Both the position numbers and the translations under genes were made by a program. DNA of 64,000 nucleotides from Podarcis gaigeae (lineage: Eukaryota), in assembly GCA_964106915.2 (NCBI GenBank), contig OZ066916.1. One strand, 5' to 3'. The notes beneath the pieces are model-generated. The model made no database searches. It was given only the letters and a program-made list of their open reading frames with translations, and was not told where the DNA came from. Shown in pieces: positions 1-12,540 of the stretch (the first letter of the stretch is position 1; every line of letters starts with the position of its first letter).

Positions 1-48
1 GACCGTTGTTGCTTTTTTGCAGAGAATGGGGTGGGTCTCTGATGGAGC

Positions 49-218
49 CAGTGGCGTAGCGTGGGTTGTCAGCACCGGGGGGCAAGGCAAGTAATTTGCA
101 CCCCCTAACCTGTGGATTTGCGCCCCCTAACCCATGGATGTGTGCGCCCTAACCCTAACCCCCAGATGTTGCGCCCAGTGCGGCCGGCCCCCCCTGCACC
201 CCCCACGCTATGCCACTG
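49..218 (-). mobile_element. hAT-type MITE with telomere-like internal repeats, copy 1
   Basis: TIR CAGTGGCGTAGCGTGGG / CCCACGCTATGCCACTG; perfect 8-bp TSD GATGGAGC (41-48, 219-226). Confidence 0.9.
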
Positions 219-1072
219 GATGGAGCCCATTGCCACTTACTCAAATGGCATTGATGCAAAGGCCTACTGGCATGGACTATTCTCCCAAACCGCTCTTGGG
301 AGGGGAAGAGTGACAGCAGAGCTTACTAGCTGCTGAATACTATCATAGGGAACAGCTAATTTTCCCACCCATGTTACCCGAGATGCCTTTGCAGTTGGGG
401 GGAAAACTGTTCACAATGCAGCTGATATTCTTCCTCCCAATTTCGGGTGGCAAGTGTGAGGTTATCCTTACAAGACTAAGAAACAGTCTAGAGCAGATCT
501 AAACGCCAAGGCCATTTAGCAAACTTCCATTTGTCTTCCCATTATGGTTTTCATCAGTGTCCCTTGAAATCTATTTCTTCCTGTATTTATAAAATTTTTC
601 TTTTGTTAGACATTTTCTTTCTTTCTGCAGAGATTCTACTGACCGAGGACAACTTGTCCTTTTTCTGTTATGAAGTGCATCTTCCTTTCCAATTAGCTTC
701 CTGCTTACCGCTTTAAAGATGACTTCCATCATACATATTTAAGAATCCATCAGTAGAGTAATCTTGATGTCAATAATTGGAAAGGGGAAGCCTTGTGGTT
801 ATGGGAATGTTGTTGCACAACCAGGCAAACAAACATTAACAAATCAATGAAGGTTTCAAAAATTGTGCATTTACTTGTATCTAACAGGACATGAATGATT
901 ATTAGTTCACAACTGTACACTGTGGGAATGGGAGTGAAATGCTTCCTCTCTCTCCCCCCCCCCCCCAATTAGCCCACAATTGGGAAGCCAGAACAGAGAC
1001 CTGAGTTCAGAACCACATTCTGCATCAAGTTTGCTAGGTGACCTTGAAATAATGATTATCTAAGAGTATAGG

Positions 1073-1292
1073 CAGTGGTGAAGCTGCATGCTCCGCTACC
1101 AGGGGTGGAGAGCAGGTGGGGGTGTGGCTGGCGCCCCCCCCCGGGGGGCATGACGTGCACCTGTGGGGGCATGGCGTCCGCCACATGGGGGGGCATGGCA
1201 CATGTCTGGGGGGGGCACCACGATGGCACCCTACTGGAATAATGGTATCGGGGGCGATCTGCTCCCTCCACACTCTGGTTCCTCCGCCAGTG
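1073..1292. mobile_element. Second GC-rich hAT-like MITE
   Basis: Imperfect TIR CAGTGGTGAAG / CTCCGCCAGTG; 8-bp TSD AGTATAGG / AGTGTAGG. Confidence 0.65.
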
Positions 1293-1377
1293 AGTGTAGG
1301 TTACGAGGAAGATGGGAGTATAGAGTCAGTTATGCCACCGGATCTCCTTAAAAGGGAAAGGAGGGGAATATGTAATA

Positions 1378-1623
1378 CAGTGGTACCTCTGGATGCGTAT
1401 GGGATCCGTTCTGGAGCCCTGTTCGCATCCTGAAGCGAACGCAACCCGCGTCCCTGCGTCTGCGGGTTGCGATTTGCCGCTTCCACGCATGACGTCATCT
1501 TGAGAGTCTGTGCATGTGCAAACGGCGAAACCCGGAAGTAACGCGTTCTGTTACTTCTGGGTTGCCGCGGATCACAACCCGAAAATGCTCAAGCCGAAGC
1601 TACTTCAACCTGAGGTATGATTG
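1378..1623 (+). mobile_element. Tc1/mariner (pogo/Tigger-like) MITE
   Basis: TA TSD; termini CAGTGGTACCTC...GAGGTATGATTG. Confidence 0.85.
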
Positions 1624-2559
1624 TACAACTATTTGTGTACTAAATCCCTTTGTGTACTAAATCTATGGAAAATATACAGAGTATACTTAATATAGACACT
1701 ATACCTTTGGTGATACCCAGAGAATCTGCCATTCACATTTCAGATGAGTTGGTATATTAATTTGGTGCTAATTAGTAGTAATAAAGCTCACTGGCTTTTT
1801 GTCATGGAATACCATAGTAGATTATCGTTTGTTAACAGGGTGCAACAGATGGAGCTGAACCTTTCCTGAATTTGGTAGCTATATGGCCACTATATAGATA
1901 TTCCAGCAGAAGGTTGGACTTAATGGGGCAGTGGTTTTTACACCTTATAATCTCCTGCCATAGAAGTCAAGACTTCAAACCTCTAGCTACTTAATGGGAA
2001 GCAAACCCCATTAAACTGAATGGTACCTGCTTCGGAATTGTCACAGTCAGGGCTAGATTTCTCTCAGTAGGAATGTGGCAATTTTGTGCAATCCAAAATA
2101 TCTTGCTAGAATTCTTGTTTTCCCACAATCCTTACTGTCACAGTAGTGACTGAAAGGCACAGAGTTCCTCAAATAAAAAAGCCCTCATGAATGGTTTCAA
2201 CTTCTACAAGTGTTAAAATCTGTGTTCTTTCCATAGTTCTATTTTTATTTACATGTTTCCTTAAGACTTCTTTTCATTTATCTAATAAAAAGCAAGAGCT
2301 ATACAAGATTGTGTCTGCCCCTATTCAACCCACTGCTGACAGCACAGCCCTTTGCTATCAACAGTGAGCGAGTAGTGGCAGATATACTCTGCTGTAATTC
2401 TTGTCTTAATTGTTTCTAGGGTGCAAGACTATAAGGTAGGACCAGCTTTGTTCTCCTGAAGCCAGGATCAAAGAGATATAAAAGGCTGCTAAAATACAGA
2501 AACAGGAAGTTAATAAAGCATTTGCTACACAAATAGCATAAAGCCATGGTTCCATGTTA

Positions 2560-2818
2560 AAGGTAAAGGTAAAGGTACCCCTGCCCATACGGGCCAGTCA
2601 TGTCCGACTCTAGGGTTGTGCCCTCATCTCACGTAAGAGGCCGGGGGCTAGCGCTGTCCACAGACACTTCCGGGTCACGTGGCCAGCGTGACGAAGCTGC
2701 TCTGGCGAGCCGGCACCAGCTCAGCACAAGGAAACACCATTTACCTTCCCACTATAACGCGGTACCTATTTATCTACTTGCACTTAGGGGTGCTTTCGAA
2801 CTGCTAGGTGGGCAGGAG
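2560..2818 (-). mobile_element. Sauria/Squam1 SINE, 5'-truncated
   Basis: (AAAGGT)n tail; TTTACCTTCC...GGTACCTATTTATCTACTTGCAC core; 13-bp TSD TGGTTCCATGTTA. Confidence 0.9.
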
Positions 2819-3293
2819 TGGTTCCATGTTACTACCAACAAAAACAGCTGCTGGTGAGGAACAACATCCTTTAAGTACCCGACCTCAGCTATTTCTCCAC
2901 GGACAACAAATAATGCTGCAAGAGTCTCCATTCACTGCAAAGCAAAGCAGTAATTTGGGGAAGTTTCATAGAATTATCCCATCTTTTACTTTTACAAAAA
3001 TAAACCTGCAACACAATTTTGCCTTGAAAAATTCTATTGAGAAGTGCCTACATTTTTATTGCTAGAGATGGAATGTGTCTGTTCCTCTGATTAGGCACCA
3101 ATGGTGCTATTGCAACCAACCTCACATGAAATATTGATTGTAATATTTAATGGAATTATTCTTCATCATTTCTAAGGGTGGTAAAAGCTATTTTAGCAAA
3201 AAGCTTTTGTGGTTTGGTACTGACGATCTTGCTGGTGCAGTTCAGATTTTAGAATTTAGCATAAGAAGGAATGTCTTAGCTACTGCCATATTT

Positions 3294-3415
3294 TGGTTGG
3301 ACAGTGTTCTCGAAGCTACTGTACTAACATGAGTTTGACCAGGAGGTGCCTAGCGTGCTCTGGTCCATGGAGTCACGAAGAGTCCGACACGACTAAGCAA
3401 CAGCAACAACAACAA
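3294..3415 (+). mobile_element. RTE-BovB 3' remnant
   Basis: GGTTGGACAGTGTTCTCGAAGCTAC...GTCCATGGAGTCACGAAGAGTCCGACACGACT(AAC)n. Confidence 0.85.
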
Positions 3416-4389
3416 ATTGCCATTTTTTAAGACCAGTTTATTTCTAGGCATTGCCTTCATGAAGGAAGAGACCAGATTTACCCTCCCCTCCCCCCAGTTT
3501 GTGATATTTTTTCTAAGCACAATTTCCAATCCAAGCTTCTTTAAGTCAGGTGACTTCAGTATCTAGTGGAGTACAGCTTATCCTACCATTTCCTTAGATC
3601 ACTGGACAAGCCTTAATTTCCATTCTGGATACCATACCAAGGTCCCATGGAGTCTAGTGATCAGAATTTGCCAAGGCACAGTTCAAGTGGCAAAAACATT
3701 CTAGCATCTGTCCCTACAGCTATGGAGAATGCATGGCTGTATTTTGCCACAAGCATACGTGTTTCCAACATGATAGTCACATAATGATGTCCCCATTTCG
3801 TAGCCCTGCATTTCCACATAGAAACAGTGCATTAAGCAGCCCTCTGCTCACCCACATATTGAACCACAGCTCTTAACAAGTCAAGAAATAGTCCTTGCCT
3901 TGATTTAAGTCTTGGTTCCATCGCATGTACCCATAACAGCATACCTGAAGATTAACAGGCAAGCAAGAAATAAGTAGGGGTTTATTTCTTAGACAAGCTG
4001 CTGAACTAGGATAATAAAAGCAATTCAGCTATTTTACAAATACAAAATGTAGCATTTTAAACCAGTAACTCTAAAGTCTATGAAAATAATTATTTTCTGG
4101 AATTTTAGAGGCATGCATTTTAAGAACTCTTTCACAAAGAACTGCCCCTTTCCCAAAAACTTGCACAGCACACCTAATCTGTAGGTATACAATTGACTCA
4201 TTATTTAACATAATCCATCTCTGAAATCTTTGTAGATCTGATACTGTGGAGAATGAACCATTCTTTACCACAAGACAGACTGGCAGACACATTCTAACAC
4301 CCAGCACTGTGAACACAATACTGCTTGTTCCTTCCTGGTTCATTACAGTCATTTATGCAAATCTTCCTCCAACTTCCTACTACCTCTGG

Positions 4390-4595
4390 CTATAATGTCT
4401 TAGCCGGAGGTTCTGATGCCATAGTTTTTGTCTGGAGCTGCTCTTTGTCTGTCTCTAGATTTGGATCCACTTGTTCCTGTATATCTGATTTTATAGCATG
4501 GAGTGCATAGTTAATACTAGTGCTTTCAGTCCAGCTCCAGGACCCAAACAGGGGGTTGTACAACATTCCTTTCACTGTCTTGACTAAAAAGCCAT
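4390..4595 (-). CDS. COQ3: COQ3 coding exon 7 (terminal); ubiquinone biosynthesis O-methyltransferase, spliced CDS 1080 nt = 359 aa
   Basis: GFLVKTVKGMLYNPLFGSWSWTESTSINYALHAIK...TL*; pyrimidine-rich acceptor; exon lengths 106+112+153+100+243+160+206 sum in frame. Confidence 0.95.
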
Positions 4596-5577
4596 CTGTA
4601 AGAAAGGAGAGAAAGAGACAGTATAAGGAGACTATTCTTAAAAAGGAGCTAACATCCACAGTAAACATGTGCAAAATTTCCTGTAATGTCATTCTGGCAC
4701 AATGGTGGTGTTGTCTTGGTAAACTGCGAGCCAAAGCAGCATTAGGAAAAGGTTTTAAATCTTGATGCTATCAAAACATTCAAGAATGTCCAAGTAAAAT
4801 GTATCTTGCTGAATATTCAGTACTACAAATTCAAATTAGCACCTGGCTGATTATTTCTGAATTGTGACTAAAACCCCAGGTTAACACATGTATTAACCCA
4901 AACCCAGAGTCAAAACAAAATACCTATCTTTAGAAAGTTGATGTTTATAATCATTTTGAAAGGACACCTACAATTTACACACCAGCATTTTACACATCAG
5001 ATGATCCAATAGTCAGTGTTTAGGTATATCTACATGTTCCTGTGTGTATATATACCACTTCATCATTTCATTGTCAGCCCTCTCCCTCCCCCAAGTGGAA
5101 TAAACACTGTTACCCAAACCTGCCACTTGTAGAACGGTACACTTGCCCCTTCCCAATCCCACGATATCATACAGTAAATCTTCTCATTGATGCTTAATTA
5201 ACATAAATTTATAAAGCAGAGAAACTGTTTTATGATAGAATCCCTTCTGAAAATATACTTTAAATGCAACCTACAAAAATCAGGGTGAAAACGGGACACC
5301 AAAAAAGGACTAACAGGGCAAACCTATGTTCACTCGGAAGAAAGTCCTATTTAATTCAATAGAGCTCAACCTCAGGTAAGTGGGGTTAGAACTGCAGGAC
5401 TCACTTCTGACAGGGACAAGATGCTGCTCTCCCCGACACCTTCCCCCATTTAATTATTTACAGTCATTCTTCACCACTCTTCATCAAAAGATTCCAGGGT
5501 TGTGGGTGTAAGTGTGAACAAATTCACAAAACTGTCTTTCACTTCCTGGTGCAAGCCTGGCAGGTCTTTTGATTTAG

Positions 5578-6018
5578 AAGAGTTTGGATTTGATATCCCG
5601 CTTTCTCACTACCCAAAGGAGTCTCAAAGCGGCTAACATTCTCCTTTCCCTTCCTCCCCCACAACAAACACTCTGTGAGGTGAGTGGGGCTGAGAGACTT
5701 CAGAGAAGTGTGACTAGCCCAAGGTCACCCAGCCAGTGGCGTAGCGTGGGGGGTGCAGGGGGGGCCGGTCGCACTGGGCGCAACATCTGGGGGTTAGGGT
5801 TTGGGGGCGCAAATCTGCGGGTTAGGGGGCGCAAATCCACGGGTTAGGGGGCGCAAATCCACGGGTTAGGGGGCGCAAATTACTTGCCTTGCCCCGGGTG
5901 CTGACAACCCACGCTACGCCACTGCACCCAGCAGCTGCATGTGGAGGAGCGGAGACACGAACCCAGTTCCCCAGATTACAAGACTACCGCTCTTAACCAC
6001 TACACCACACTGGCTCTA
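5578..6018 (-). mobile_element. Squam3-like tRNA SINE, interrupted by the MITE at 5734-5924
   Basis: Head GAGCCAGTGTGGTGTAGTGGTTAAGAGC (A box) with a B box; tail GGGATATCAAATCCAAACTCTT; TSD GATTTAG. Confidence 0.85.
5734..5924 (+). mobile_element. hAT-type MITE with telomere-like internal repeats, copy 2 (nested in a SINE)
   Basis: Perfect 17-bp TIRs; 8-bp TSD CACCCAGC (5726-5733, 5925-5932). Confidence 0.92.
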
Positions 6019-6192
6019 GATTTAGTATTTCATACACCTTAGATTCCCCTCACCCATTGACTACATATGATTACTCTGCAAAGCATGCTTGCTTTATGCG
6101 ACACCTGTATCAAGGGATAGTTAAGGTCAGCTAGCAGCCAAACTTGAAGGAAGTTACTGACTATGTCCTTTCATTGGGGTTTAAACACTTAC

Positions 6193-6352
6193 TTGACTCT
6201 AGGAGCCTCTCTAGCTCCTCAGGCGGTATGAACTTCTCCCAATCATGGGTGCCTGTCGGAACAATGCCCAATACTCTCTCAGCTACCACAATGCCAAAGA
6301 TGTAGGACAGCTGTGATTTATTGATTGTAGTAATAAATAAGGAGCCTTCCGG
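6193..6352 (-). CDS. COQ3: COQ3 coding exon 6
   Basis: PEGSLFITTINKSQLSYIFGIVVAERVLGIVPTGTHDWEKFIPPEELERLLES; 160 nt; GTAAGT donor. Confidence 0.97.
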
Positions 6353-7253
6353 CTTAAACAAAAACAGCACAAGTGTTAGCACATCTGTCATGAATACACA
6401 ATATAACTAGCAGCATCCAGTTAGCGTGTGAAAATTAGGATTGTCACCATAGTAAATAAATAAAAAAAATGGTGGTTCAAGCTTAAATTGATTTTTAAAA
6501 TCTTTACAGATTTTCCAGACATTGCAACAGACACCATCTTAGAAAAAGAATTTCCTTACATATGTGCATATAATGCTTCTTCAAATATTATTCTTCCCTC
6601 CAGTTTTCTGGAATAAAACTATTTTAAAATTCTGCCATCCCTACAAATACAGGCACCTTTCATGCCAATCACCAGATTTTTAATTGGTGAAACTAGCCTA
6701 TCAGCGAAGTAATGTAGCCCTAAACATGTAGGCTTAGCCAAAACATATTTGTATGGGTCAATTCAAAAACAGGTCTCATCGGAGCTGTTTGAATTTGTAC
6801 TATAAGCAATGCAATTTATACTGAAGCCAAATTCAAATTTATTCATGTTACTATGGTTCTGAGATTGGTATACAGAATATCTGTTAAGCGTTACTGCAAT
6901 ATTTTTGTGCACTAATAACTGTTTGGCTTGTTTCTATAAGAAAATAATCTAGGGCCCCATCTGCATTCTATATTCAAAGCAGTACTGTATCACTTTAACA
7001 GTCATGTCTTTCCCTGCAAAATCCAGGGAACAGTAGTTTGTTAAGTAAGGGTGCTGAAAGTTGTGACAAGACTGCTATTCCTCTCGCAGAGGAATCTAAC
7101 GGTTTAAGAGCCAATCCCTCTTCGCAGGGAATGCTGAGAGTTGTAGCTCTGTGAGGAACAGGATGCCACAAGCCACAAGGTAGGGTTATGTTATCGATAA
7201 ACTACTACTATTTACCCTGGGGCCCTTGGGATAAATAGAACTCAAAATATCTA

Positions 7254-7498
7254 CAGTCATACCTCATGTTACGTTTGCTTCATGTTATGTTTTTTCAGAT
7301 TGCGTCCTGTGGCGACGACAGAAAGGGTTACTTCCGGGTTTCGTCGCTCACACATGCACAGAAGCACTAAATCACGCTTTGCGCATGCGCACAAGTGCCA
7401 AATCGCACCAGCGTAGATACAGTGCTTCAGGTTGCGGGCTTTTCATGTTGCGAACGGGCCTCTGGAACGGATCCCGTTTGCAACCAGAGGTACCACTG
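7254..7498 (-). mobile_element. Tc1/mariner MITE, same family as 1378-1623
   Basis: TA|CAGTCATACCTC...GAGGTACCACTG|TA. Confidence 0.85.
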
Positions 7499-7789
7499 TA
7501 CTTATTTATTTTGTGTTTTATGATTTATTTCCTTCATGTTTTTAGATCTGTACCCAGAACCCATTTATTGTCTGGTTCATTACCTCAGCAGGAAAAAGTG
7601 CAATATTCTAAAGGTTGTGTTTGTTTTCAATATGGATAATTTGAATCAATAAGGGTTGCATAAAATTACACTCTTTAGCACAGAGCAAGTCAAAAAAAGG
7701 AAACCAATGCAAAACATTTCTTATAATCAACAGCTTAATTTTACAGTGCAAATGATTCAGCATTCTTTTTTTGCTTTATTCCAACTCAC

Positions 7790-8032
7790 TTTTAACACTT
7801 TGCTGCAGCACCTGATAAACATTTCCACATCAGCCACATGTTCTACAACTTCAGAAGCTACAATGACGTCAAATGTGTCTGATGCTTCTTCCACAATATC
7901 CTCTAGCGTACAGGATTTGTACTGTATTCTTTTAGCCAGAACTGGGTCAAATGATTTATGCAGTTCTGCTGTTCTAATGCTGTCTTCCAGAGGATCAATC
8001 CCAGTAACCGAAGCTCCCAATCTACCTAGAGG
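7790..8032 (-). CDS. COQ3: COQ3 coding exon 5
   Basis: PLGRLGASVTGIDPLEDSIRTAELHKSFDP...FDVIVASEVVEHVADVEMFIRCCSKVLK; 243 nt; GTGAGT donor. Confidence 0.97.
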
Positions 8033-8839
8033 CTAAGACCATAGACACGTTAGTCTTTTCTGCTTAAAAAAAATAGAATATGTAACCAAGTTGTTATTTG
8101 ATTAGAAGGAAGTTACTGAAGAGCGTAAAGTAAACTCCGAAGCTTCCTCCCTGACATCTATCCCTTTGGTGTCTCTCCACCCCCACCCCCACCCCCACCC
8201 AAAAAAACCCCTACTGGAATAATAGAAGGGACAGACCCAATAATATTCAATTATTTAACTTTTTCTAGGTTGATTAAGGAGAACCGATCATCATAAGCAT
8301 AGTTGCAGTTTAGACTGCCAGTTATAATAAATAGCTAATTATTTTGTCTTCTAGAAATTGTAGATCACAAATACACACTATAAAAAGTAAATCATGCATA
8401 AGGCTTCAATCCTGTCAGCACCTACTTGGAAGTAAGGATCACTGAACACAGTGCAAAATAAAAGTAAAAAAAAAACTTTGTGGAAGTTCCAGCAAATTAG
8501 GGAACTTCAACCCTTTCCACAAAATCAGTTGAAGTGTGTTCCGGCTCACAGTTTAGCTCTACAGCTAAATTCTGCATTTCCAGCAAGAACACAGCAACAT
8601 CCTGCCTGCACATAATAAATATGTGCATCGGCACACACACCATACCACTTTGCTTTACTAGACTATCTTACTCTAAATAATACCATAATGAACTAATAGA
8701 GCAGATTGCAAGAGAGACTTCTAGTTAAACAAGTACTTGGAAGAACGAAATAAACACTATTCAAAACTTCAGTGCTGTGCTACTTCAAAACAAAGGGTCA
8801 GGGATAAGAAAATTTATTATCAAAAGGTGTAAGCCCTAC

Positions 8840-8939
8840 CTCAGTTAACAATCCACCACCACAGCCAACATCCAGGATCTTCACACCAGAGAGCGGGCTT
8901 CCAGGCTGATGATCATTTCTCATATTTAAAACAGTATCT
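8840..8939 (-). CDS. COQ3: COQ3 coding exon 4 (SAM-binding motif I)
   Basis: DTVLNMRNDHQPGSPLSGVKILDVGCGGGLLTE; AG/GT boundaries; 100 nt. Confidence 0.95.
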
Positions 8940-9512
8940 CTTACACAAAGTACAAAACAAATTATGTTTTAATTATGACCGTCCACCAATAAAGAGCTTT
9001 TAGTTGATCAAGTACACTTGCATATTACCAAAGCCTCAAAATGTTTGCCTTGTTGAGATATGGAATGAAATCAGGAAACTTTCTGATTACTAAACAAAGG
9101 TTTAAGTTTATAGGAGGAAGAGTCATCCTTAATATTCTCTTCTTTTTCATCTCCTATTATAATACACACTCCAGAATCAACACTGGCTCAAAAATAAAGA
9201 CCCATATGCTTACCTCATAGCTCCAATTATTAAAACACACCCTCACTAAGTGAAATTGGTCTCCACTAAGCTCAAATCCTATACACCTTTATATGAGAGA
9301 AAGCCCCATTCAGCTCATTGGCACGTACTTGTGAATAGGACTGCTCATTCAGTCTACCACTTAAAGTCTACAGCTCCAGTTGTAATAGCTTTGTACTCAG
9401 TAAATATTTAAGCTAAGCAATACAAATGAAGACACCTCTACTCTAAAAGGTGATGTGTTACAATTTTCAGATTCCCAGAAGTATGTAAAACTGACCCATT
9501 ACAAAACCTTAC

Positions 9513-9665
9513 CTAATAAATGGCACTCTAATATCATTCATAGAATGAAGAGCTGCATAATCTCCATGCTCATCCCACCATTTATGTGCCAGGAGTTGGA
9601 ATTTTTTCATCTCCTTTGGATCGACTGTTGTTTGTGACATGCTGTAGTGTCGCTCTGTGAGTAAC
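9513..9665 (-). CDS. COQ3: COQ3 coding exon 3
   Basis: LLTERHYSMSQTTVDPKEMKKFQLLAHKWWDEHGDYAALHSMNDIRVPFIR (UbiG/COQ3 N-terminal motif); tttAG/GTAAGG; 153 nt. Confidence 0.95.
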
Positions 9666-9795
9666 CTAAACATCAAAGGTATTACTACATTAGGTGGCAT
9701 AAAAACAGGGATCAGCTAGCAGGAAAAGAGAAATTTAATGAGTGGATAAATTCAGATTACAGTTGGACCCCACATGATCGTTCCTTACATTGAAG

Positions 9796-9896
9796 CAGTG
9801 GCGTAGCGTGGTGGGTGCAAGGGGGGCCGGCTGCACCGGGCTCAACATCTGGGGGTTAGGGTTAGGGGGCGCACATCCACGGGTTAGGGGGCGCAA
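9796..9896 (+). mobile_element. Same MITE, truncated copy 3
   Basis: Left TIR CAGTGGCGTAGCGTGG and internal sequence match copy 2; ends within the repeat array. Confidence 0.85.
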
Positions 9897-10480
9897 TGCA
9901 CAGACCCAATTATATCTATTAGAGACTACAAACTATCCGACCTATGTAGAGACAAATAATTCACAAATCATATCCAGTAGTCCCAGAGGTGGATGTGCCA
10001 AATCCTGCTGCCCAATATATATAAATTATGCCTTACCAACATGTAATGACCCTTTTGTTTGAGTAACACAAATCACTGTCCATTAGCAAGGTTTGCCATG
10101 CCACTATGTAAAACATTGGTGGGAGGGACACTAACATAGTGGCACAAAATGTGCTTTATGCTTACAATACAAAGGCACAAGCGCCCAGAATGCTACTAGT
10201 TTGTAGGCCATGTACCAAGAGAGTTACAGATTACACTACTGTTATTTTGTTACTTATTAAGAAATGTATGAAAACCATAACCCCCTCCAAAAAACCCCAC
10301 AACCTTCATTTTGAGCTGAGTCGATCATTATGAAGTAATCAGAAAATACAGAAAGTGTGGGAGGTCATTATTTTTGTTTATTACTATGTTATGCATTTTT
10401 GAGTTTTTATATTGTAAACCACTCTGTGATCCTTGGATCAAGGATGGAAAGGAAATTTAATAGATAAGAATAATACTCAC

Positions 10481-10592
10481 ATTGTGTTCCTCGCTTGAAT
10501 TAAACTAACAAATATATGATATTTTAACTGATTTTTACACCTCTTAAGGAAGGGTATTTGGAGTAGTTGAGGAGGCTGTCCATAGTGATTAC
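10481..10592 (-). CDS. COQ3: COQ3 coding exon 2
   Basis: ctctctccAG acceptor and GTGAGT donor; 112 nt, open, phases 1 to 2 link exons 1 and 3. Poorly conserved N-terminal region. Confidence 0.7.
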
Positions 10593-12059
10593 CTGGAGAG
10601 AGAGAAGTAAAGCAATTTTTGTTGTAAGCTTCCTGGCCCAACAATTTTTAAAACTGCTAAGAATCCCTAATACATCTGAGTTTCTAGCTGAACAGGTTAG
10701 CACCTATTTTCTACAAACAATGGCCGCAAACGGTTGGCTCATGTAACATTTTAGAGTTCTTTCAGCAGCATATAATGTTTTGCACATTTTCATAATTAGT
10801 CTCAGGAATCAGACTGTTTTAATCCAAAAGGGCAACCATGTGTTACCACAGTTATATCTAAGTTATGATTGTGACACTGCTTTTTAATGGGCTAAAACTA
10901 CAATGTGCAATAGCTCCTTTTCCCATATTGACACACCATTGCTATAAGATCAGCAGATCAGGCACTCCTCATCTAATATGGTGCAAGAGTCAAGAAAAGG
11001 ACCTTTTCGGTGGTGGATCCTTGCACATGCATCTTGCCTCATTTATTTACAGATCCAAGTAGCTAGTAAACACAGCTTTTCAGCAGGCAATTGGAGGAGA
11101 TGAGACCTGATTGTTGCTGTGATGAAAAACTGTTATTCAGTGATTTGTTGTATGTTTTTAATAGATTTTACATATCCTTATTTACTTGCTTTGATTTTAA
11201 ACCATCCTGTGGCCTGCCTCGAAGGTGAAAGATCCACACCCTCACACTCCAGTGATAATTTCAATGCAAACTTAACATTCAATAGAATAAGCTAGTGACA
11301 TGAGGATCAGAAAACTTGTTTGGGGCTGTGAAAATTCATCCAAAGTTAGATGGCAAAGCTATTTACCCACTTTCTACTGCATTAGCAGCACACCCTAGCA
11401 CCTTGCAAAATTGCATAACCAGCAAATCGAGGGCCCTGTTCCCAAGGACCTTACAATCAACAGACAGCGGGGAAACACTACAATGGCAGGGGCAGGCAAA
11501 TGCCACGAAACCTATCTAGAGCTTTGGCTGTAATCTGTGACAGCTGAAACAATGGGGTAAAAGGAAGAGTTAAGCTCACCAGGCATGAATGCAACAGGTG
11601 CTGTTTTCTGCTATGTCAATTGGTAGGGCTGTAATTGGTAGGGTTTTCCTAAGCAAAAAAACTCAGTAACTTCCAGGGTGTCCTGGTTTTTACTTTTAGA
11701 AATTTGGCAGCCCTACGAGAGGAAGCCCCGCTTGCTAGGGTTGCCACCTGCCCTGTACAATACAGGATTGTCCCCTATTCCGATCTGAAATGCTGCGTCC
11801 TGTATTGATACATTTTTGTCTTCTCTCTCTTGCTCTCTCTCGTTAGGGATCCTCTCCAAATGCATGTGAAAGGTCCTGTATTTAAGCCAAGCACAGACAG
11901 ATTTACAAATCCATTTGTAGGGTGGGTGGGTGGGTGGGTGTGACCAATTCCAAAAGGATCATCCTGATAGGCTGCAGCAGATTGTAATGAAATGCTTTCA
12001 AGTCACTTCAGCACCAGATTGGGGTGGGGGAATCGGCTCCCCAAGCCTTTTACCAGAGC

Positions 12060-12540
12060 AAAGGTGCCAATTCCGCAGGGATATCAGGGAGCCACCCAGC
12101 CGGAGATACGTGCGGAAGAAGCCCGTCAGCATGCAAGGACACCGAAGGTAGGGCAGGACCCCAAAGCCACGGCGAAGCGCAAAGGCTTACTCACAGGAAC
12201 TCAGGGCGCGCCGGCAAGCCGCCCAGCCTCCCGCCATCTCCCCGCGGAAGACCCACAGCCGCCTGGCCCGGCTGAGGCAGCCGCTCTGCCAGCCCTTCAT
12301 GGCTCAAGCGGGTCTCCGCGCAGTGCCACTCTCAGGCGGAGCTCCACCTCCCGGTCCCTGCACCTACCAATAGGGCTCGCCGTTCCCAGCCACAACCCGC
12401 GCTCAACTTCCGGTTCCGGCGAGAAGAGACGCAGCTTTTAGGAATAGCGCCACGGTCATCCTGAAAGGCCGCCGGGGGGGAAACAGTCCTGCAGCAAAGT
12501 CATACTGTAGCCCTACTCGCGGGAGGCGAGGAAGCCGCTT
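12060..12540 (-). promoter_or_regulatory. COQ3 CpG-island promoter
   Basis: GC/CpG-rich; tandem ETS/GABP-like ACTTCCGGTTCCGG at about 12406-12419 and CCAAT at about 12367, just upstream of the ATG. Confidence 0.75.
12195..12300 (-). CDS. COQ3: COQ3 coding exon 1 (start; likely mitochondrial transit peptide)
   Basis: gagccATG at 12300 in a CpG island. Reads MKGWQSGCLSRARRLWVFRG...; GTGAGT donor at 12194; 106 nt, phase 1, joins exon 2 in frame. Confidence 0.8.

Follow-up and report, generated by a model that had tools for sequence, protein, structure and literature searches.

A telomere-like MITE of the lizard Podarcis gaigeae, its probable hAT parent, and signs of recent horizontal transfer with amphibians

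Where does a short transposon with telomere-like repeats come from, and does its likeness to telomeres mean anything? The question is raised by a stretch of 64,000 nucleotides from the lizard Podarcis gaigeae (GenBank assembly GCA_964106915.2, contig OZ066916.1), hereafter the window, whose first 10 kb holds three copies of a MITE (a transposable element of the miniature inverted-repeat kind) with terminal inverted repeats (TIRs), 8-bp target-site duplications (TSDs) and a tandem array of 22-bp units. Here, we consider it quite probable that the MITE is an internally deleted derivative of a Tip-type hAT transposon of 4,835 bp, and that a recent horizontal transfer carried this transposon between the lineage of the lizard and amphibians of Iberia. 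The copies, their TSDs and their arrays (the latter by Tandem Repeats Finder) are placed in the window as follows.

49..218, minus strand: MITE copy 1, complete, 170 bp, 3 units (the first degenerate), by letter matches; contigs of three relatives match only from 219 on
41..48, repeated at 219..226: TSD of copy 1, 8 bp, GATGGAGC, exact
94..155, minus strand: array of 22-bp units in copy 1, 2.8 units
5734..5924, plus strand: MITE copy 2, complete, with 191 bp and 4 units, assigned to the youngest (TTAGGGTTTGGG) subfamily; seven other copies are at 98-99% identity to it
5726..5733, repeated at 5925..5932: TSD of copy 2, 8 bp, CACCCAGC, exact
5797..5880, plus strand: array of 22-bp units in copy 2, 3.8 units
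9796..9896, plus strand: MITE copy 3, left end and about 2 units, without right end, by letter matches; a contig of run X2 crosses the broken end and shows no difference

An earlier, sequence-only reading had placed three copies at exactly these positions, and comparison with shuffled sequence bears it out: the 16-mer of the TIR has five matches in the window and none in 100 shuffles, and the 22-mer unit, at up to three mismatches, likewise has five against none. Within the window the three are the sole copies with the MITE's TIR. The shared TIR described by that reading is real, but its length is corrected to 17 bp (in copy 2 and in the parent), and copy 1 has one TIR mismatch and lies reversed. 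The exact 8-bp TSDs on both complete copies and the unit counts of about 3, 4 and at least 2 agree with what had been read, and so does the motif upstream of the array, which is TTAGGGTTAGGG, a doublet of the telomere hexamer TTAGGG, in copies 1 and 3 and TTAGGGTTTGGG in copy 2. The left flank of copy 3, CATTGAAG, has no second occurrence between 9800 and 20000. By arithmetic, about 8,500 copies in 1.5 Gb would give a few three-copy 10-kb clusters genome-wide.

The genome was searched with the PF05699 profile and the hAT loci were scanned for the TIR, and this led to an autonomous hAT with the same TIR, a partner that the sequence-only reading had suggested looking for; a DUF4371 search met the same locus (L065).

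G000:C2:65527529-65532363: parent hAT element, 4,835 bp, intact open reading frame (ORF) of 825 aa, TSD CATGGGAG on both sides, exact

Over the last 70 bases the ends of this parent match copy 2 at 68, with the 17-bp TIR in both. Two hAT transposase loci carry the MITE's TIR, i.e., the one on G000:C2 and a partial copy of the parent, with TIRs and TSD, on G000:C28; no second full-length intact ORF was found among 15 candidates. The 825-aa product has two domains above cut-off, DUF4371 and Dimer_Tnp_hAT (PF05699, 45.3 bits against a cut-off of 21.4), and the motifs DSTPD, GQGYD, CNNH and ERSFS, located by pattern; their DDE-type assignment follows a pattern set that we take to apply here. A PDB sequence search with the transposase gave no match at E up to 1. 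From hAT biology, the common ends and the intermediates between parent and MITE, we infer that the MITE is mobilised in trans by the 825-aa transposase, which would bind the shared 17-bp TIRs together with subterminal sequence, excise the MITE and reinsert it at a new site, where 8-bp TSDs would result. A vertebrate hAT transposase that is intact, plus its putative natural substrate, would be a useful resource.

Across the genome (1.51 Gb) the right-end 29-mer of the MITE has 4,788 exact matches, sister families included, and the left junction with two hexamers (TTAGGGTTAGGG) has 3,940. The first 30 right-end loci comprised 26 MITE copies, three sister derivatives with another interior and one locus without a left end within 1.5 kb. 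Since the exact left junction is present in 12 of these 26 sampled copies, the rough total is about 8,500 copies, probably an underestimate. Lengths range from 123 to 213 bp, and the unit number, described before as variable, does vary from one to five in the sample (one unit in 2 copies, two in 13, three in 9, four in 1 and five in 1). Departure from the majority is 56 of 503 CpG positions (11%) and 68 of 2,843 other positions (2.4%), in a sample that leans young because it was chosen by exact end; the CpGs had been called largely intact, which they are, though not wholly. In a survey of 83 copies, mostly best hits and exact-end hits, TSDs were exact in 60, had one mismatch in 14 (hence at most one in 74) and two or more in 9, without a strong target-site consensus. 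The 8-bp TSDs that the sequence-only reading expected in other genomic copies are thus present, and copy number, divergence, unit spectrum and target-site consensus are now on record. The family has what is expected of a hAT (8-bp TSDs, short TIRs of 17 bp) and of a MITE (small, non-coding, high copy number, ends common to an autonomous element), so that the young non-autonomous hAT element proposed from the letters stands, with a non-CpG divergence of 2.4%. TTAGGGTTTGGG is found in each of the eight sequences that match copy 2 most closely. Thousands of young lineage-specific insertions of this kind would be usable as markers.

Two unusual arrangements of the MITE were met along the way. At L037:1013-1529 (G000:C1, about 2321100-2321614), two copies in direct orientation stand around about 225 bp of other DNA with only a common outer 8-bp TSD, CTGCCACC; this pair, which had scored as TSD failures, is a composite transposition that likely carried the intervening DNA along. 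At L158:916-1491 (G000:C1:7344415-7344990), three copies in tandem, repeating every 192 bp, and a short remnant of a TIR are bounded by one TSD, ATCCTGAA, possibly the start of a MITE-derived satellite.

How did the array arise? A single AAATCCACGGGTTAGGGGGCGCAAAT stands close to the right end of the parent, in the arrangement AAAT-CCACGGGTTAGGGGGCGC-AAAT, and by sequence comparison the array is a duplication of this subterminal segment. The unit is single in 13 of 18 parent-type right ends, double in 4 and triple in 1, and these last five indicate that duplication was already under way in longer derivatives. A sister family of 390 bp (defined by an element at locus L053) has the same ends as the MITE and retains internal sequence of the parent; with 1,021 candidates, of which 40 were scored, it is 2.3% off its own majority, and the same core is duplicated in 9 of its 29 complete sampled copies, there with a 33-bp period. 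Slippage between short direct repeats is seemingly the simplest mechanism, i.e., a slipped-strand duplication between the two AAAT words would create the 22-bp array, which would afterwards grow and shrink to give the one to five units seen. The TTAGGG doublet would have formed at the deletion junction, via slippage or microhomology joining. Subterminal transposase-binding repeats are a known hAT feature, and the repeated gain of the same core may fit such a role, the core then acting as additional transposase-binding sequence; part of the core, GGGCGCA, is found at the MITE left end as well. Families with a single unit have spread too. The series from parent through intermediates to MITE illustrates how a tandem array can arise from one subterminal segment.

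In the hits listed, the closest named relatives of the transposase are amphibian. Twelve named proteins, from the amphibians Pleurodeles waltl, Pelobates cultripes and Pelodytes ibericus, share 90.7-97.2% identity with it, and the lizard-newt identity of 95-96% stands beside a newt copy-to-copy identity of 96-97%. Of the 120 hits listed, the remaining long ones with a name lie at 35-47%, the sole named squamates there at 37% and 41%; homologues of Pelobates fuscus, Rana temporaria, Bombina, Hyla and the lizards Hemicordylus and Rhineura lie at 37-44%. In a quick tree of 28 proteins picked from the hits, the lizard protein is sister to seven amphibian copies (Shimodaira-Hasegawa-like approximate likelihood-ratio test, SH-aLRT, 100; branch 0.023), and lizard, newt and two anurans stand apart from the Hemicordylus, Pelobates fuscus, Rana and Bombina homologues. 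As a host control we used an 80-aa exon of COQ3, the gene in which copies 2 and 3 lie, which shares 100% identity with a cluster that bears the label Podarcis lilfordi, marking the host as a lacertid, and 78-93% with other squamates. To the frog Hyla sarda, the one amphibian in the 120 of 331 matches listed, the exon is 75% identical. A transposase at 91-97% against a host exon at 75% to a frog argues for recent horizontal transfer between a lacertid and Iberian amphibians. From these protein comparisons, transfer of the transposon between the lacertid and the three amphibians is, in our judgement, highly probable. The ranges of Pleurodeles waltl, Pelobates cultripes and Pelodytes ibericus overlap; confinement of the transfer to Iberia we nevertheless regard as somewhat doubtful. 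Of the words of the 825-aa ORF, a share of 0.70-0.81 is found in 14 runs of six organisms and 0.58-0.62 in three possibly-RNA runs; the share of 0.43 in an amphibian metatranscriptome is just a hint, and the small shares in X19 and X20 and the absence from X21-X23 are not counted as evidence. A lizard, a newt and two frogs with a near-identical DNA transposon would make a tractable case for learning whether common geography and common parasites promote transfer between land vertebrates.

Several points weigh against this account of descent and transfer. The transposase tree comes from a quick search only. The contrast with a host gene is found at the protein level only, and its control is one 80-aa exon compared with one frog outside the three sharing species. 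The distribution outside the listed hosts was judged from protein collections, where repeats are often unannotated, with about 8,000 candidates scored per search. Unnamed proteins at 67-88%, a Bufo gargarizans fragment at 80% and Lucifuga dentata at 85% over 14% of the length indicate that the clade is wider than Iberia. On the side of descent, the intact copy on G000:C2, whose ends depart from those of the MITE at several positions and which has the sole full-length ORF found, cannot have given rise to the MITE directly. The upstream motif in 17 of the 18 parent-type ends is TAAGGG, not TTAGGG, which weakens the microhomology route to the doublet, still one of the two routes.

Known systems offer partial parallels. 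Like BuT2 of the Tip group (Tip100, BuT2; PMC3942097), the lizard parent combines DUF4371 with a hAT dimerisation domain, and it shares with the group short CAG-starting TIRs, an 8-bp TSD and horizontal transfer; it differs in its vertebrate hosts and in its one long ORF of 825 aa. Its placement as Tip is suggested by the DUF4371 and hAT domain content. The hAT-6_XT that turtles, fishes and a frog share by horizontal transfer (PMC11008031) likewise has near-identical transposases in distant vertebrates, a patchy spread and a non-autonomous derivative, but its hosts are others, lacertids and Pleurodeles being unmentioned in the portion of that text available. No turtle or Xenopus proteins are among the close transposase hits listed. 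MITEs with tandem repeats include Xstir/Xmix and miDNA4 of Xenopus. DTC84 of Donax (PMC3879986) is also a tandem-repeat MITE with a short variable array of up to five units; its TSD is AA, whereas here the TSD is of 8 bp, an autonomous parent was found and the unit is traced to a parental subterminal segment. The geography-dependent transfer of BovB in Madagascar, where snakes passed it to frogs (PMC9007160), resembles ours as squamate-amphibian transfer with a possible regional signal, with a long interspersed element (LINE) there and a DNA transposon here. Of the reported vertebrate transfers, 93.7% are in ray-finned fishes, and DNA transposons inside genomes evolve neutrally (PMC7070016); the accessible main text of that paper has no mention of Podarcis, lacertids or Pelobates. 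hATs are abundant and expressed in P. waltl (PMC11872487), in whose available text the whole word "horizontal" occurs 0 times. Our literature searches found no paper on the MITE family or on the transfer, with supplements (species lists, repeat libraries), subscription papers, Dfam and Repbase outside the search.

If the transposase had been inherited vertically and kept as a domesticated gene, one would expect a single intact ORF in the assembly, as is the case, and its homologues do carry the database label ZMYM1-like. The lizard ORF, however, is enclosed by a TSD and TIRs that are intact, the homologues in amphibians comprise many distinct copies spread over different chromosomes, none of the named proteins that birds, mammals or other squamates contribute to the matches listed is close, and lizard and newt differ about as little as newt copies differ among themselves; we hold vertical descent with domestication to be very unlikely. 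The same single full-length copy could also invite the suspicion that the shared transposase is assembly contamination, which appears extremely unlikely: the copy sits with its TSD on a 127-Mb contig, its derivatives number thousands across many chromosomes, the 14 runs rich in ORF words come from six organisms (one run possibly the assembly's source), and the amphibian proteins lie on chromosome-scale contigs of three species, 3-9% off the lizard's.

A different account of the MITE's significance, put forward by the sequence-only reading, is that it scatters functional micro-interstitial telomeres or G-quadruplex (G4) seeds that recruit shelterin. In its favour, the TTAGGGTTAGGG junction is exact at 3,940 places, the 10-mer TTAGGGTTAG is held by 20 of the 26 sampled copies, a 25-base window with G4Hunter of at least 1.5 is present in all 26, so that the proposed G4 potential of the sequence holds, and the loose G4 pattern is present in 25; many non-telomeric G-repeat sites are bound by TRF2 in human cells (PMC7614491). 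The double-stranded Myb site of shelterin, however, is TTAGGGTTA, and band shifts without the POT1 overhang required two such sites (PMC3241663). The 22-bp unit has no Myb site because its TTAGGG runs into GG; TAGGGTT occurs zero times in 4 of the 26 copies, once in 20 and twice in 2, and tandem TTAGGG runs with at least two double-stranded Myb sites are lacking in 24. Nor do the hexamer runs lengthen: three hexamers stand at 15 of the 3,940 doublet junctions and four at none of those 15, and a unit lengthened by one hexamer is met at 2 places, so that telomerase-like extension was rejected (exact-match patterns only). The strict G4 pattern is in just 2 of 26 copies. In copies 1 and 2 the highest G4Hunter window belongs to the left-end G-runs, the array alone peaking at 1.4, and their predicted single-strand fold is the TIR hairpin, unchanged with G4 allowed (copy 3 gains 0.6 kcal/mol). 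The doublet is lost in the youngest subfamily; it is likewise missing from the 390-bp family, a sister family that is abundant as well although it lacks the array. Both telomere seeding and shelterin-like recognition are left unsupported, and we judge a functional role of this kind improbable. The fuller scenario, in which a possibly still active transposon passed regionally and recently among newts, spadefoot toads, parsley frogs and lacertids, and its MITE in the lizard spread about ten thousand G-rich TTAGGG-doublet cassettes that titrate or recruit TRF2/RAP1 and add telomere-length-sensitive regulation, we consider quite improbable. Judged by the letters, the telomere-like repeats are likely a copying by-product and the telomere likeness incidental, a reminder that such motifs easily arise by chance in G-rich transposon ends.

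The timing of the insertions was approached by comparing contigs of four runs (X1, X2, X5 and X14) over window positions 1-10150. Run X2 is nearly identical to the window, of which it could be the source, and X1, X5 and X14 differ from it by about 2-6% in the flanks. Contigs of these last three start matching at 219 and have different sequence ahead of that point, which suggests that they lack copy 1; those of X1 and X14 join 5570 directly to 6019 and so lack the repeat hosting copy 2. Very many contigs of all four runs stack on the MITE bins, indicating that the family exists in the relatives too. MITE activity likely spans and postdates the split from the X1, X5 and X14 relatives. At the third copy, contigs of X1, X5 and X14 end matching at 9721, 74 bases before it, and an insertion or replacement from window position 9722 onward differs between lineages. 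A further SINE-like (short interspersed element) insertion at window 2547-2818 is missing from X1 and X14 contigs.

The host locus of the copies has the following features.

4393..12300, minus strand: host gene COQ3, 7 coding segments
5571..6018: high-copy interspersed repeat, SINE-like, insertion host of copy 2, spanned by the X1 and X14 contig joins; presumably a Sauria SINE

Two of the copies are intronic, copy 2 in the last COQ3 intron and copy 3 in the one between 9664 and 10480; the remaining one, copy 1, is about 4.2 kb beyond the COQ3 stop. Elsewhere in the window, a GC-rich element at 1073-1292, which has ends of the CAGTGG type and repeats a 24-bp unit internally, is probably a separate non-autonomous hAT. 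A high-copy element whose ends are of the CAGTGGTACCTC type occurs twice, at 1378-1625 and 7253-7500, with many loose contig ends at 7252 and 7500.

The genome also holds other hAT families. Two multi-copy ones, with frames of 658 aa and 730 aa, were considered as partners of the MITE and rejected, its TIR being in 0 of 20 stretches. The first has its intact 658-aa ORF in at least 10 places (L136-L140, e.g., G000:C8:83325500-83332000), with copies about 98.6-99.8% identical and an upstream tandem-repeat region, and by this identity is probably very recent or active. The other (DUF4371, open frame up to 730 aa) has five copies about 97-98% identical (L141-L145, e.g., G000:C1:109564500-109572500). 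At L120 and L129, elements starting CAGTGGCGTAG or CAGTGGTGTAG lie next to broken hAT transposases and represent related families.

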